Below, one piece after another: positions 18,796-38,574 of a DNA stretch of 64,000 nt. Origin of the DNA: Armatimonadota bacterium (GTDB taxonomy: Bacteria > Armatimonadota > Zipacnadia > Zipacnadales > Zipacnadaceae); assembly GCA_036504235.1 (NCBI GenBank), contig DASXVN010000076.1, positions 4,395-68,394 of the forward strand, read 5' to 3'. The notes under the pieces were generated by a model. The model was not told where the DNA came from. It was given only the letters and a program-made list of their open reading frames with translations, and made no database searches. Each line of letters starts with the position of its first letter. The first letter of the stretch is position 1. The position numbers and the translations under genes are program-made.

Positions 18796-18993
18796 CTAGT
18801 CGCCGATCCAGTAGCGCCCCGCCCACCCGCCGATCAGGGCCAGCAGGGTGCAGACGATGACCGCCCCCAAACCCCATTTATACCCGATAATCCCCAGGAC
18901 CAGGCCGGCGGCCGCTCCCGCCACTGAGCCCCAGGACAGCCGACGAGTCCGCACCGTTGTGAGCCCCTCGAAGTCCTCCAGGTCGTCAGCCAC
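18796..18993 (-). CDS. Small two-helix membrane protein
   Basis: 65 aa with two hydrophobic helices. GTG start with AGGAGGG RBS, 4 nt from the accC stop. Confidence 0.4.
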   Translation of the reverse strand: MADDLEDFEGLTTVRTRRLSWGSVAGAAAGLVLGIIGYKWGLGAVIVCTLLALIGGWAGRYWIGD

Positions 18994-18996
18994 TGG

Positions 18997-20352
18997 TTAC
19001 CCTCCTTCGGTCATTACCGTGTGCCGCTCGAGAAAATGAGTGTCAATCTCGCCGCGGCGGAAATACGCGTTGCCCAGCACCCGTAGGTGGAAAGACAGGT
19101 TGGTCCGAATCCCCTCGACCCGCATCCCTTGCAGGGTCGCTTCCATGCGCGCGATGGCCCGCGCTCGGTCCGGCGCCCAGCAGATCACCTTGGCGATCAT
19201 CGGGTCGTAGTAGGTGGAGACCTCCGAGCCGGTGGTCACGCCGCTATCCACGCGCACGCCCGGACCGAAGGGCACTTCCCAGCGGGTGATGGTCCCCGGC
19301 GAGGGCATGAAGCCTCGCTCGCCGTCGGCCGCCAGCACCCGGCACTCCAGCGCGTGACCGTTGAACCAGATATTGCCCTGCTCCAGTTGCAGCTTCTCGC
19401 CGGCGGCGATGCGCAACTGCTCGGCGACTAGGTCCACCCCGGTGAGCATCTCCGTGACCGGATGCTCCACCTGGATGCGGGTGTTCATCTCGATGAAGTA
19501 GAACTTGCCCCGGCCGTCCATGAGGAACTCGACGGTGCCCGCATTGCGGTAGCCCACCGCCTGCGCGGCCTTGACCGCCGACTCGCCCAGCCGGCGGCGC
19601 TGGGAGGTGCTCACGGCCACCGAGGGCGATTCCTCGATCAGCTTCTGGTGGCGGAACTGGATGGAGCACTCGCGCTCCCCCAGATGAATGACGTTGCCAT
19701 GCTCGTCGGCGAGAATCTGGACCTCGATGTGCCGCGGCAGCGCCAAGTACTTCTCCAGGTAGACCTCGCCCGAGCCGAAGGCCGCGCGGGCCTCCATGCG
19801 GGCGGAGTCCAGCGCCGCGCTGATGCCCTCGGCGTTGTGCACGACGCGGATGCCGCGCCCGCCGCCGCCCAGGGCCGCCTTGATCATCACGGGGTAGCCC
19901 AGCGTCTCGGCGATGGAGCGGGCCGCGCGGGCATCGCGCACCCCGTCCTCACTCCCCGGCACCACCGGCACCCCCGCCTCGCGCACGATGCGCCGGGCGG
20001 CGGACTTGTCCCCCATCTGGCGAATCACGCCGGAGGGCGGGCCGATGAACTTGATCTTGCAGTGCTCGCAGGCCTCGGCGAAGTTGAAGTCCTCGGACAG
20101 GTTGCCGTAGCCCGGATGAATCGCCTCGGCGCCGGTAATCACGGCGGCCGAGAGCAGATTGGCGGCGCTCAGGTAGCTGTCCCGGTTCTGCGGAGCGCCG
20201 ATGCAGACGGACTCATCCGCCATCCGCACGTGCAGCGCGCCCGCGTCGGCCTCGGAGTAAACGGCCACGGTCTTAATTTTGAGTTCGCGGCAAGCCTGGA
20301 CGATGCGACAGGCGATCTCGCCGCGATTGGCGATCAGAACTTTTTCGAACAT
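18997..20352 (-). CDS. accC: Acetyl-CoA carboxylase biotin carboxylase subunit
   Basis: MFEKVLIANRGEIACRI... ATP-grasp biotin carboxylase, 451 aa, full-length homology to AccC. Confidence 0.9.
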   Translation of the reverse strand: MFEKVLIANRGEIACRIVQACRELKIKTVAVYSEADAGALHVRMADESVCIGAPQNRDSYLSAANLLSAAVITGAEAIHPGYGNLSEDFNFAEACEHCKIKFIGPPSGVIRQMGDKSAARRIVREAGVPVVPGSEDGVRDARAARSIAETLGYPVMIKAALGGGGRGIRVVHNAEGISAALDSARMEARAAFGSGEVYLEKYLALPRHIEVQILADEHGNVIHLGERECSIQFRHQKLIEESPSVAVSTSQRRRLGESAVKAAQAVGYRNAGTVEFLMDGRGKFYFIEMNTRIQVEHPVTEMLTGVDLVAEQLRIAAGEKLQLEQGNIWFNGHALECRVLAADGERGFMPSPGTITRWEVPFGPGVRVDSGVTTGSEVSTYYDPMIAKVICWAPDRARAIARMEATLQGMRVEGIRTNLSFHLRVLGNAYFRRGEIDTHFLERHTVMTEGG

Positions 20353-20400
20353 GTCTCTCCTGTGTACGCGGTCGGCGATGCCCTGACGACCGGCGATGCA

Positions 20401-20631
20401 CTACTTGAGATTGGCGATGAACTCCTCAACGGACAGGCCGGCCTGCTCCAGAATGCGGTGCAGGGTGCCCAGGGCCAGATCGTGGCCGCCATGCTCCGGA
20501 ACTACCGTGGAACGCTTCTGCTCATGGTGGACCATGAAGGTGTGGCTGCCCGTGATCCGCATTTCCTCGAACCCGGCCCGGCGGAGCGCCGCGATGGTCT
20601 CTCGCGCGTTGACCCGGGGCTCCTTAGGCAC
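20401..20631 (-). CDS. hicA: HicA-family mRNA interferase toxin
   Basis: 76 aa with ...LRRAGFEEMRITGSHTFMVHHEQKRSTVVPEHGGHDLALGTLHRILEQAGL, matching the HicA/YcfA-like fold motif (GSH...). Confidence 0.7.
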   Translation of the reverse strand: MPKEPRVNARETIAALRRAGFEEMRITGSHTFMVHHEQKRSTVVPEHGGHDLALGTLHRILEQAGLSVEEFIANLK

Positions 20632-20977
20632 CGGGCTGGTCCTCCCGGATGGTAAGCCGATAGACGAAGGCCTCCTGGCTATGGCTCATGTCCACGGTGA
20701 CCTGTGGATTGTCGGGCGCCAGCGGCCAGCCCAACTCGCGGTTGCCCTGAAGATAGAGCCGCAGGGCGTCCTCCGTCATCTGTAGGCACTCGGGCAGGGT
20801 ATCGCCAAAGCTGCCGCAATTGTTCAGCGCCGGCGCGTAGGCTGAGTAGTGTCCATCAGCTTCCCGCATCACGACAACAGTGTAGACTGTCTCCGCCTGC
20901 TTCCGGCCACGACCGCGTTTCGCCCGAGGATCAGGACAAGCGGCCGGCGGAGTGCCCGGTTTTGCCTTGGTGGGCAT
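20624..20977 (-). CDS. hicB: HicB-family antitoxin
   Basis: ...YTVVVMREADGHYSAYAPALNNCGSFGDTLPECLQMTEDALRLYL is a HicB N-terminal (UPF0150-like) domain. Overlaps hicA by 8 nt. Confidence 0.65.
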   Translation of the reverse strand: MPTKAKPGTPPAACPDPRAKRGRGRKQAETVYTVVVMREADGHYSAYAPALNNCGSFGDTLPECLQMTEDALRLYLQGNRELGWPLAPDNPQVTVDMSHSQEAFVYRLTIREDQPGA

Positions 20978-21003
20978 CGTCTGGTTTCACCTCACCAGCC
21001 CGA

Positions 21004-21396
21004 TCAGTACTTCTCATGCCCCGGCGTGGGGTCGGATACGGCGCCGGTCGCGGGATCATACTTGAACGCCTGCCCGCTGACCGCGCACTTGAGCGGCACC
21101 CCCCATTTGGGGTCCAGCGCCGCCGGCCACTCGCCGGTTGAGTCCTTCTCCATCTGCAGCGCCATGCGCAGTTGGTGGAGATTATTGATGCAGTCCACGG
21201 TCTGGCCCTTTTGCAGGCTCTGGCCCAGCACCGTCTGCGCCTCGCCCGCGAAGCGCGGCTTACGCTGCACGTTCCCGGCGGGACGCAGGTAGAGCCACCA
21301 GACGGCGATCATGATGATCGCCACCACGACGAGCAGGCCAATCAGGGTGGCGCTGCCTCGGCGCGAGCACCGACCTCGCTGCCTCACGATGGTCAC
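21004..21396 (-). CDS. Small N-terminally anchored membrane protein
   Basis: TM helix TLIGLLVVVAIIMIAVWWLY. GTG start overlaps the accB TGA stop (GTGA). Confidence 0.4.
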   Translation of the reverse strand: MTIVRQRGRCSRRGSATLIGLLVVVAIIMIAVWWLYLRPAGNVQRKPRFAGEAQTVLGQSLQKGQTVDCINNLHQLRMALQMEKDSTGEWPAALDPKWGVPLKCAVSGQAFKYDPATGAVSDPTPGHEKY

Positions 21397-21845
21397 GCTC
21401 CCGGCCGGAGCACAAACAGCAGGTCGCCAAACTGCACCGGCTGGTGCTCTTCGGCCACGATCTCCGCCACCGTCCCCGCTCCCGGCGCGGTGACGGCCGT
21501 AATCTGCCGCAAAGACTCAATAGTGCCGATAGTCTGCCCCGCCTTGACCTGGTCCCCGAGCGCAACCAGCGGCTCGCTGTCCGGACCATTGCCCCGGTGG
21601 AAGAACCCCACCAGCCGCGCGGTGACCGCCACGGCGCCCTCCGCCACCTCCGGCGTCGCGATGGCCATGCCCAGCGAGATCGCCGGGAGGCCGTTCGCCT
21701 CCGTCTCCTCGCGCACCGGCGCAGCCGCCACCGGCAGAGCCGGTCGGCGCAGGCGCACGTACAGATCGCCTTCCTTGACGGACAACTCCAGCGCGGAGGA
21801 TTCCTTCAGTATACCCAGCAGGCTCAGGATACGTTCGCGATCCAC
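21393..21845 (-). CDS. accB: Biotin carboxyl carrier protein ortholog (AccB) lacking the biotinyl-lysine
   Basis: N-terminus (MDRERILSLLGILKESSALELSVKEGDLYVRL) parallels E. coli [32 protein letters not shown], followed by an Ala/Pro linker and biotinyl domain. The EAMKM motif reads ESLRQ; the codon is CGG (Arg), read from the minus strand. Confidence 0.8.
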   Translation of the reverse strand: MDRERILSLLGILKESSALELSVKEGDLYVRLRRPALPVAAAPVREETEANGLPAISLGMAIATPEVAEGAVAVTARLVGFFHRGNGPDSEPLVALGDQVKAGQTIGTIESLRQITAVTAPGAGTVAEIVAEEHQPVQFGDLLFVLRPGA

Positions 21846-21890: not shown

Positions 21891-22455
21891 CTACTTCGCG
21901 CGGGTGACGTACTCGCCGGTGAGGGTGTTTACGGTAATGACCTCTTCGTTCTCGATGAACAGCGGCACGGTTACCTTGATCCCGCCCTCAATCGTAGCCG
22001 GCTTGTTGCCCCCCTGAGCGGTGTCGCCCTTGAGGCCCGGCTCGGTGTAGATAACCTTGCGGTCCACCGTATTGGGCAGCTCCAGACCGATGATCCGGTC
22101 CTCGTAGACGGTGACGTAGAGGTCCTCGCCTTCCTTGAGCCAGCCCAGATCAGCGCCGATCTGCTCGCGGGTGAGTTCGCGCTCCTCGTAGGTCTCGTTA
22201 TCGAGGAAGTGATAAAGCTCGCCGTCGGTCCACATGTAGTTGTGCGGCCGCTTCTCCAGCCGCGCGGTCTCCAGGCGGTCTTCCGGATCGAAAGTCTTGT
22301 CAAAGGACTCGCCGTTAATGATGTCGCGCAGCTTGGTGCGAATGAGAGCGGACCCGCGTCCGACACCCATGTGATGGTCCGCATGCAGGACGCGCAAGAT
22401 GCGCCCGTCCATATCAATCGTGTTGCCTTCCCGAAGTTTCGTCGCCAGAATCAAG
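21891..22455 (-). CDS. efp: Elongation factor P
   Basis: 188 aa from a TTG start at 22455 preceded by GGAGG. ...ILATKLREGNTIDMDGRILRV... aligns with the EF-P N-terminus; C-terminal ...TEPGLKGDTAQGGNKPATIEGG..VTVPLFI is EF-P. Confidence 0.85.
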
Positions 22456-22642
22456 TGTTCCCAACCTCCTGCAGAGCAGAGACTAGACGCCGCACCGGGG
22501 AGGGCCCAACTTCCACGCAAGCGCAGAAGGCAACCGGGCCGGCGGTGCGGCGACGAGGGCTGCTTAGAAATCTAAGAAAAAGTGTACAAGAAGGAGGGGG
22601 AAATGTAAAGCTGAGGGGGAGGAGGGGCTTCCCGTGGCCGTC

Positions 22643-37791: not shown

Positions 37792-38574
37792 CTACTCGGG
37801 CCAGTCTCCGCCTTGCGCCGCGGTACCCCAGCGCTCACAGGCACCGACGCCATTGCTGCCCGCCGGGTTCAGCGCAAACGGCCCCTGGCCGTCATGGTAC
37901 CACTTGGCGTTGCCATCCACGAACAGGAAGTTCTTCCCGCCCACGTGGAACATGATCTCTGAGTACCCCGGCTGCCCCTTCGTGCTGTGGCTCTGGTACA
38001 CGTTCTCCCCCAGCGCGTCGCCCCACGAGCCGGGCAGATTCGCGCCCTTTTCGAAGAGCAGCACCGTCGCGGCCGGATCGGGGATCATGGCCTTGTTGCC
38101 CCCGGTGAAGATAGTCGTGACGCCGACCCGCCGCGAGCGCTGCGTGTACCGAGCGATCGCGTAGGCGCGCAACGTGTCCGCCTTGGCTCCGGGGGTCCCG
38201 ATGACGGCCTCCGGCATCGGATTAGTGGGGCAGGTCATGATTCCGCTGACCTTCTTCTCCACGTAGTCGCCAATAGTTATGTCCCAGGTGATGATCCCGG
38301 CCGCCGGCTGGTCCTTCGGGGTCGGGGGCGCCATGGGGTTGGGATGGCTGACGCACCACGTGGGGAAGTACTGATAGCTGTCGTTGCAGTACAGCGAGAA
38401 GGCCATCCCCAAGTTTTTCAGGTGCGAGATGCACTCGACGCGACGCGCGTTATTCCGCGCGTTCGCGATCACCGGGAACAGAATCGCCGACAAGACGGCG
38501 ATGATCGCAATCACCACCAGCATTTCCACCAGCGTAAAACCCGTCCGCAGACGGCGGGCTTGGTTCATCTCCAC
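37792..38574 (-). CDS. Prepilin-type N-terminal cleavage/methylation domain protein with DUF1559-like C-terminus
   Basis: Leader + GFTLVEMLVVIAIIAVLSAILFPV (type IV pilin N-methylation site). C-terminal ...GGKNFLFVDGNAKW... is typical of DUF1559 proteins, which are abundant in Planctomycetota and Armatimonadota. Confidence 0.75.
   Translation of the reverse strand: MEMNQARRLRTGFTLVEMLVVIAIIAVLSAILFPVIANARNNARRVECISHLKNLGMAFSLYCNDSYQYFPTWCVSHPNPMAPPTPKDQPAAGIITWDITIGDYVEKKVSGIMTCPTNPMPEAVIGTPGAKADTLRAYAIARYTQRSRRVGVTTIFTGGNKAMIPDPAATVLLFEKGANLPGSWGDALGENVYQSHSTKGQPGYSEIMFHVGGKNFLFVDGNAKWYHDGQGPFALNPAGSNGVGACERWGTAAQGGDWPE

Follow-up and report, generated by a model that had tools for sequence, protein, structure and literature searches.

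Within a 64,000-nt stretch of DNA from an Armatimonadota bacterium (assembly GCA_036504235.1, contig DASXVN010000076.1, positions 4,395 to 68,394; hereafter the window), a two-gene module named hicBA is embedded in a housekeeping cluster that runs, on the minus strand, in the order efp, accB-like, orf130, hicB, hicA, accC, orf65, nusB and xseA. The pair is probably a bona fide type II toxin–antitoxin (TA) system and an accessory, long-resident passenger of this conserved Armatimonadota cluster, situated at the junction between orf130 and accC. It would have entered the junction in an ancestor of the subclade whose accC is at least 80% identical to that of the window. Descent since then would have been largely vertical, interrupted now and then by loss or decay of the module or by acquisition of a second one.

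Both genes, hicB (20624..20977) and hicA (20401..20631), lie on the same strand between the gene in the accB position and accC, as the initial annotation had described. The proteins of this locus are listed by NCBI as HEY3398589-94 of the Armatimonadota metagenome-assembled genome. The arrangement is not an assembly artefact, since the same gene order is found on an independent Logan contig (L001) and since a 113.5-kb JGI contig encodes accB-like, HicB, HicA, accC and orf65 proteins that are identical or at least 90% identical.

Distribution of hicBA at the orf130-accC junction

Profile-guided scans of genomes and metagenomes, combined with exact-protein look-ups, yielded 17 distinct loci that cover the junction, the window included. 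In 11 of them hicBA is absent and orf130 is separated from accC by a spacer of 36–148 nt (L002/L016, L003, L015, L004/L020, L005, L006, L018, L021, L022/L023, L028 and L031). The pair occupies precisely this site in the window (and L001) and in five relatives, L007, L008, L012/L013, L014 and L019. All of the occupied loci belong to the subclade with accC at least 80% identical to that of the window; the deeper lineages, in which accC identity is 66–72%, are all empty. hicBA is an accessory element at this position.

Are all three genes between the accB-like gene and accC to be counted as extra? The initial annotation had treated orf130, hicB and hicA as genes inserted into an accB-accC operon, and this holds for hicBA but not for orf130. 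Whether or not hicBA is present, each of the 17 loci has an orf130 homolog between the accB-like gene and accC, with identity down to 37–38%; orf130 is therefore a core gene and not part of an insertion. While junctions free of hicBA are common, an accB-accC junction free of orf130 was found in none of the 17 loci. It is orf130 alone, and not hicBA, that belongs to a conserved core arrangement in the relatives. A tripartite orf130-hicB-hicA system was considered and rejected on the same synteny.

It is accordingly very improbable that the three genes form one recently inserted mobile block, or the remnant of one, that interrupts a canonical accB-accC operon. They do share one strand and a tight spacing between the accB-like gene and accC, and a canonical accB directly precedes accC elsewhere (L024, with a gap of 25 nt). 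However, the 11 loci that have orf130 without hicBA refute the idea for orf130, and orthologs of hicBA with 55–86% identity are found at the same site in other relatives. No integrase or transposase gene is present in the efp-xseA cluster, no significant terminal repeats were detected, and the GC content of hicBA (0.64–0.65, against 0.675 for the window) is host-like.

The predicted toxin and antitoxin and their expression

HicA is a 76-residue protein with a GTG start. It matches the Pfam family HicA_toxin (PF07927) with E=2.4e-17 and 63.2 bits, well over the cut-off of 27, and covers profile positions 1–58 of 58, in agreement with the initial annotation of the gene. Its best sequence match in the PDB is 1whz (5e-8), and 6g26 (7e-4) and 4c26 are also matched. 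The motif G28-S29-H30 is intact; the G-x-H motif and its His, which we take to be the catalytic residue, are invariant in all seven aligned HicA copies. By these sequence criteria HicA is clearly a genuine HicA_toxin protein that has kept its catalytic His, and it is predicted to be toxic.

The identification of HicB, a 117-residue protein with an ATG start, is less direct. The window protein on its own matches HicB_lk_antitox in Pfam with E=3.9e-4 and 21 bits, which is under the cut-off of 27, so that the profile match expected by the initial annotation is not reached by this single sequence. The assignment is confirmed by its orthologs, by a profile search and by a structural model. PF15919 is matched by 12 of the 13 members of the HicB family (best E=4.2e-9). 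In a search of the PDB with the family profile, Yersinia pestis HicB3 (4p78) ranks first with E=5e-4, and TTHA1756 and Burkholderia pseudomallei HicB are also among the top matches. The top 18 Foldseek matches in the PDB to an AlphaFold model of HicB (AF2; mean predicted local distance difference test score, pLDDT, 77) are all HicB antitoxins, with probabilities of 0.99–1.00. In this model, strands at residues 30–38, 44–48 and 54–58 are followed by a helix at 61–82 and a strand at 102–110; this b1-b2-b3-a1-b4 arrangement of residues 30–110 is the predicted HicB N-terminal, partial RNase H-like fold. Next to hicB there is an adjoining hicA in the window, L007, L008, L009, L012, L014 and L019.

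Neither the model nor the Foldseek alignments reveal a C-terminal DNA-binding domain of the ribbon–helix–helix (RHH) or helix–turn–helix (HTH) type. TM-scores relative to the target are 0.64–0.76 for entries that consist of the N-domain only, versus 0.42–0.50 for full-length entries. Because only N-domains align and because the protein stops seven residues past b4, HicB can be described as a short form without RHH or HTH, and by its modelled structure it groups with the short, single-domain HicB/UPF0150-like proteins. Residues 1–29 (20891-20977, minus strand) form a disordered, basic and Pro-rich tail (CPDPRAKRGRGRK; CPDPRAKRGRRKK-like), which is kept among the copies at the acc locus and is missing from an ectopic copy in L009. 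This tail might substitute for the absent C-terminal domain in binding nucleic acid. An 81-residue HicB call (JGI, start M37) was rejected: it deletes the invariant first strand, VYTVVV. No start codon occurs between codons 1 and 36 of hicB, and a Shine-Dalgarno sequence, GGTGAGGTGA, is found 9 nt upstream of the ATG. The loss of VYTVVV from the shorter call and the presence of this Shine-Dalgarno sequence show that the 117-residue start is correct.

How would such a pair be expressed? hicB and hicA overlap by 8 nt, as had been noted initially, and this suggests translational coupling. The spacer between orf130 and hicB, which contains the Shine-Dalgarno sequence, measures 26 nt (20978..21003) and is too short to hold a promoter for hicB. 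As a separate observation, a 5-bp hairpin (CTGGT/ACCAG) is predicted in the same 20978-21003 interval of the minus strand, with the hicB Shine-Dalgarno sequence GAGGTGA in its loop. A scan of 18.7–22.8 kb with the E. coli-type consensus, applied to a phylum whose promoters are uncharacterised, found a single sigma70-like match (TTTACA-17-TACACT, 22581..22609, minus strand, 9 of 12 consensus positions), located upstream of efp; none was found between this region and accC. The scan of the same interval for intrinsic-terminator-like sites detected none in the cluster, and a search for Rfam elements over 16–24 kb returned nothing relevant.

The spacer between hicA and accC (20353..20400), for which 45 nt had been reported, measures 48 nt; it contains the accC Shine-Dalgarno sequence AGGAGAG and no terminator-like element. 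In L019 and L008 the corresponding gap is 17–21 nt. Since no promoter-like or terminator-like site lies between them, co-transcription of hicBA and accC is likely. The initial proposal that accC is read through the TA module is supported as very probable by the promoter and terminator scan and by the short gaps.

A possible mode of action can be outlined from these features. hicBA would be transcribed as part of the operon and would not be autoregulated, and the supply of HicB and HicA would therefore track the transcription of a growth-linked, essential operon. By analogy with the studied HicAB systems, the HicB N-domain would occlude the active site of HicA. Were transcription of the operon to fall, as in starvation or when a phage shuts off the host, HicB, if labile, would be degraded, and the freed HicA, a predicted ribosome-independent mRNA interferase, would cleave mRNA and cause growth arrest. 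Such an arrest might serve addiction, the response to stress or abortive infection. A place between two conserved genes, one of which (accC) is probably essential, would also shield a selfish module from large deletions.

History of the module

The divergence of hicBA resembles that of its neighbours. Identity between the window and L012, L007 and L008 is 86, 78 and 61% for HicA, 68, 64 and 56% for HicB, and 64, 64 and 58% for host genes. Between the window and L012, synonymous divergence (dS) is 0.74 for hicA, compared with 0.70 for the accB-like gene and 1.02 for orf130. Because this divergence matches that of the neighbouring genes, hicBA appears to be an old resident that has been lost in places, and not a recent mobile insertion. 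The alternative put forward in the initial annotation, that the pair is the remnant of a mobile insertion, does not fit the five relatives with an orthologous pair at the same junction, the neighbour-like dS, the host-like GC content, or the lack of mobility genes and repeats around the pair. Searches for flanking repeats, target-site duplications, terminal inverted repeats and attC-like sites gave only chance-level matches of 10–18 nt. The repeat that brackets the insert (D6) is an 11/12-nt match within conserved coding sequence, and about one such match is expected by chance (an estimate). A tblastn search of plasmids returned only distant matches, with identities of at most 45% for HicA and 38% for HicB, and there is therefore no evidence of a recent plasmid origin. 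Insertion boundaries at the nucleotide level were sought and rejected as not definable, the intergenic DNA of the window and that of the empty relatives being too diverged: only about 35 nt proximal to accC and the scar in L015 can be aligned.

Traces of gain and decay are found at the same junction. In L007 (5341-6478) two full hicBA modules lie between the orf130 homolog and accC, a pair encoding HicB' (92 residues) and HicA' (85 residues) followed by a pair of the main type; HicB' and HicA' are 31–36% and 39–43% identical to the main type, respectively. In L012 (2596-2995) the main-type pair is followed by an orphan HicB' gene and a remnant of about ten codons that resembles the 3' end of hicA (..VEQFLALLN*). 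A second, distant module or its decayed remnant is therefore present in two of the five occupied relatives. The 148-nt spacer of L015 (1796-1949) holds the last ~45 nt of a hicA gene (..EEFVALLK*), identical at 38 of 47 nt to the 3' end of L007 hicA. As this fragment runs into the same accC leader, it is interpreted as a deletion scar.

Is the pair still under selection? The ratio of nonsynonymous to synonymous substitution rates (dN/dS) is 0.14–0.46 for hicA and 0.09–0.39 for hicB, which indicates purifying selection on both; the flanking genes have equal or higher ratios. These values, together with the invariant catalytic His and the preservation of the overlapping start and stop codons, speak against the notion that hicBA is a neutral or decaying passenger, or a domesticated and non-toxic pair, that persists owing to the hazard of deletions within the operon or to a co-opted role, such as processing of the operon mRNA. 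Decay does occur in relatives, as in L012 and L015, HicB lacks the usual regulatory domain, and the PADLOC defence models gave no match. On balance, a neutral or domesticated status is unlikely.

A recurrent capture of modules is a tentative possibility for part of this pattern. The orf130-accC junction would then be a landing pad that independently took up promoter-less hicBA cassettes several times, one option being homologous recombination via the highly conserved flanks after DNA uptake, and there would have been no single ancestral gain followed by losses. The two distinct hicBA types at one junction are consistent with this, since they occur in opposite order, main type last in L007 and main type first in L012. 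So are the split of the main type into two subgroups, the related pair in an unrelated context in L009, and the fact that hicBA is present in the more distant L008 but absent from the closest relatives of the host by accB-like and orf130 identity (L015 and L003). However, L015 is empty only by virtue of a deletion, as its hicA scar indicates; the groupings of HicB and HicA broadly parallel those of the hosts, with dS matching that of the flanking genes; and nothing resembling a recombination site was found beyond the chance-level D6 match.

Long residence in the operon with mostly vertical descent remains the probable history, and several points weigh against it. The dS values are near saturation (about 0.7–3), so the argument from co-divergence is rough. 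The subgroups window/L012/L007 and L008/L014/L019 could represent two independent captures. The related pair in L009 (HicB 66% identical) stands in an unrelated context, from which it follows that the module has moved at least once. No scar is present in L002 or L003, where loss is an inference only. With regard to expression, the promoter consensus is of the E. coli type and may not fit Armatimonadota, and a promoter inside orf130 or hicA is possible; moreover, HicB might still exert regulation through nucleic-acid binding by its basic N-terminal tail.

The surroundings of the L009 pair deserve a separate description. The pair (L009:2667-6496), whose HicB is the ectopic copy without the basic tail, is flanked by a gene for 5-FTHF cyclo-ligase and by DUF8091/FolB genes, and a MazE/nucleotidyltransferase-HEPN pair is found a few kb upstream of it.

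The conserved cluster and known systems

The first gene of the cluster is efp (21891..22520, minus strand), which encodes elongation factor P with EFP_N, EFP and Elong-fact-P_C domains and is found upstream of the accB-like gene in every locus that reaches this position. accC (18997..20352, minus strand) encodes biotin carboxylase, with 639.9 bits against TIGR00514 (cut-off 626.5) and three biotin carboxylase domains. It is followed directly by orf65 (18796..18993, minus strand), a 65-residue, Gly-rich membrane protein gene that is kept in near relatives. The orf65 homolog of L008 matches DUF2273, and in its placement the gene resembles the small genes that separate accC from nusB in Firmicutes.

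The accB-like gene (21393..21845, minus strand) is accB by position, between efp and accC, and encodes a homolog of the biotin carboxyl carrier protein (BCCP) without the biotinyl-lysine. The N-terminus of the protein (MDRERI..L..LLK.S...EL.V.EGD) aligns with E. coli AccB and the fold signature of the biotinyl domain is kept, but in an ungapped alignment ESLRQ stands opposite E. coli EAMKM and there is no conserved lysine nearby. Against TIGR00531 the protein scores 69.7 bits, where the cut-off is 115.2, and all 48 of its close homologs fall below the BCCP equivalog level; the NCBI name is only 'biotin/lipoyl-containing protein'. The lysine is missing in 18 of 19 aligned homologs (the exception is P0056), which have the motifs ESLRQ, EALRN or EALGK, with R or G at the site. 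The canonical biotin motif E[AVSTC]MK[MLVI] is absent from all six frames of the window, and no canonical BCCP was seen within it. The initial assumption of a normal accB-accC operon is only half correct, as the accB-like gene product cannot be biotinylated at the canonical lysine.

An exhaustive profile search for accB-like proteins aligned 145 among the best 150 cluster representatives (P0086-P0234). The residue at the biotin site is Lys in 90 of these and another residue in 55 (R in 32, N in 10, G in 7, Q and H in 2 each, S and D in 1 each), on account of which BCCP-like proteins without the lysine look widespread in uncultured bacteria. The N-type variants (L027 and L030) do not adjoin accC. 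Some representatives have unusual architectures. P0094 (546 residues) and P0118 (353 residues) combine an N-terminal region that is TIR-like by eye with two to four tandem domains of the biotinyl type, some carrying AMKM or AMKL and some lacking the Lys. P0173 (616 residues) resembles pyruvate carboxylase subunit B or the oxaloacetate decarboxylase alpha subunit and is fused at its C-terminus to an entire AccB-like portion, with the N-terminal region of AccB and an AMKL motif; this is one way to encode a catalytic BCCP away from accC.

The second conserved gene, orf130 (21004..21396, minus strand), encodes a small membrane protein of 130 residues. Its GTG start overlaps the stop codon of the accB-like gene as GTGA, as first reported, and a second GTG three codons further on gives the 127-residue call used by NCBI. 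The family is derived from pilins, as judged from matches to N_methyl (PF07963; 13 of 25 members, best 5.5e-9) and TIGR02532 (6 of 25, 4.1e-6) and from the L028 homolog, which keeps RRG|FALIE; the GspG family TIGR01710 is also matched (6 of 25, 1.5e-5). The window protein itself reaches E=0.011 and 15.7 bits against N_methyl, below the cut-off of 21.2, and its signal is degenerate (GSATLIG, with F1 and E5 lost). A C-terminal motif, CPxSGxxYxYDPxTGxVx(C/D)xxxxH, is present, in which the His is invariant. An AF2 model (pLDDT 79) consists of a transmembrane helix, a long broken helix and a small hairpin head. A fold search of the PDB gave no significant structural match; the best matches are pilins and pseudopilins, but weak ones (E of at least 0.7, TM-scores of 0.27–0.37). 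Elsewhere in the window, at 37792-38574 on the minus strand, a 260-residue pseudopilin-like protein with N_methyl and DUF1559 (GFTLVEMLVVIAII...) has a helix motif, ECISHLKNL, that resembles orf130. The motif C-x-x-N-L-x-Q-L is common to both proteins, which are 23% identical by tblastn (E=0.001). A prepilin-type N-terminus and, after it, a long helix are features that the orf130 family shares with type IV pilins, GspG pseudopilins and DUF1559 proteins. Its members differ in being much smaller (113–134 residues) and in being fixed in an acc cluster, not in a pilus or secretion locus.

A triad of accB-like, pilin-like (~115–133 residues) and accC genes, with efp ahead, is found in L028 (1045-3363), in L031 (5001-6831) and in L002-L023. 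With accC 66–72% identical to that of the window, L028 and L031 place the triad well outside the clade to which the window belongs. The conserved linkage of these genes suggests a functional connection. The triad may even be a single functional unit, a bacterial counterpart of plant BADC proteins that regulates or scaffolds biotin carboxylase, with the catalytic BCCP encoded elsewhere or fused; a membrane-anchored partner would possibly join the non-biotinylatable carrier homolog, and hicBA modules, as promoter-less sentinels of the unit's transcription, would have settled in the only intergenic gap that tolerates them. As a whole, this combined scenario is rather improbable. BADC proteins, which offer the closest analogy to the accB-like protein, are non-biotinylated BCCP homologs that associate with the biotin carboxylase in heteromeric acetyl-CoA carboxylase (PMC12706156). 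Like them, the accB-like protein is a BCCP homolog without the biotinylation motif, and it is encoded beside biotin carboxylase. Unlike them, it is bacterial and is found at the ancestral site of accB, not as an additional paralog. A literature search returned nothing specific on bacterial non-biotinylated BCCP homologs.

What is the significance of these observations? That of hicBA is modest, and lies in a TA pair without a promoter or a DNA-binding domain inside an operon that is growth-linked and probably essential. The gain, duplication, decay and deletion scars at one junction provide a natural example of TA cassettes settling into, and eroding from, housekeeping operons, and hicBA could serve as a test case for TA activation driven by the mere loss of host-operon transcription. 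The side finding may matter more: throughout this Armatimonadota-related group, the accB position is taken by a gene without the canonical biotin lysine, and a pilin-derived gene invariably separates it from accC. The triad raises the question of how these bacteria assemble or regulate acetyl-CoA carboxylase.

How does the window module compare with known HicAB systems? It shares with those of E. coli (6hpb), Y. pestis (HicA3-HicB3, 4p78), B. pseudomallei (6g26) and Streptococcus pneumoniae (5yrz) the HicA_toxin domain with its conserved His, the toxin-covering b-b-b-a-b domain at the HicB N-terminus, and the format of a small, tightly coupled two-gene module. It differs from them in that HicB has no C-terminal RHH or HTH domain and carries a basic, disordered N-terminal tail, and in that the pair is antitoxin-first, has no room for its own promoter and is embedded in a housekeeping operon. 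In a review, hicAB is listed among the few TA loci in which the toxin gene comes first (PMC4803016). The window proteins also resemble short, stand-alone HicB- and HicA-like proteins such as Thermus thermophilus TTHA1756 (2yzt) and TTHA1913 (1whz) and Lactobacillus plantarum 3kwr. The HicB forms of this kind are single-domain proteins of 70–90 residues without a DNA-binding domain, and the top matches to HicB include 2yzt and 3kwr. In contrast to these forms, the window HicB adds a basic tail of 29 residues.

A literature search returned nothing specific on TA modules inside acc operons, and the nearest precedent for the genomic setting is mazEF. In Staphylococcus aureus, mazEF precedes the sigB operon. 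In E. coli, it is located downstream of relA, as a TA pair co-transcribed with host genes (PMC4803016). As with mazEF, hicBA is a predicted chromosomal type II TA module whose expression would be linked to an adjacent operon of housekeeping or regulatory function. mazEF has its own autoregulated promoters and a DNA-binding antitoxin, neither of which is detectable for the window hicBA. In itself the hicBA pair is an ordinary TA module, and TA pairs tied to host operons are already known; unlike mazEF, however, hicBA is placed between two genes of an essential biosynthetic cluster and not at its edge.

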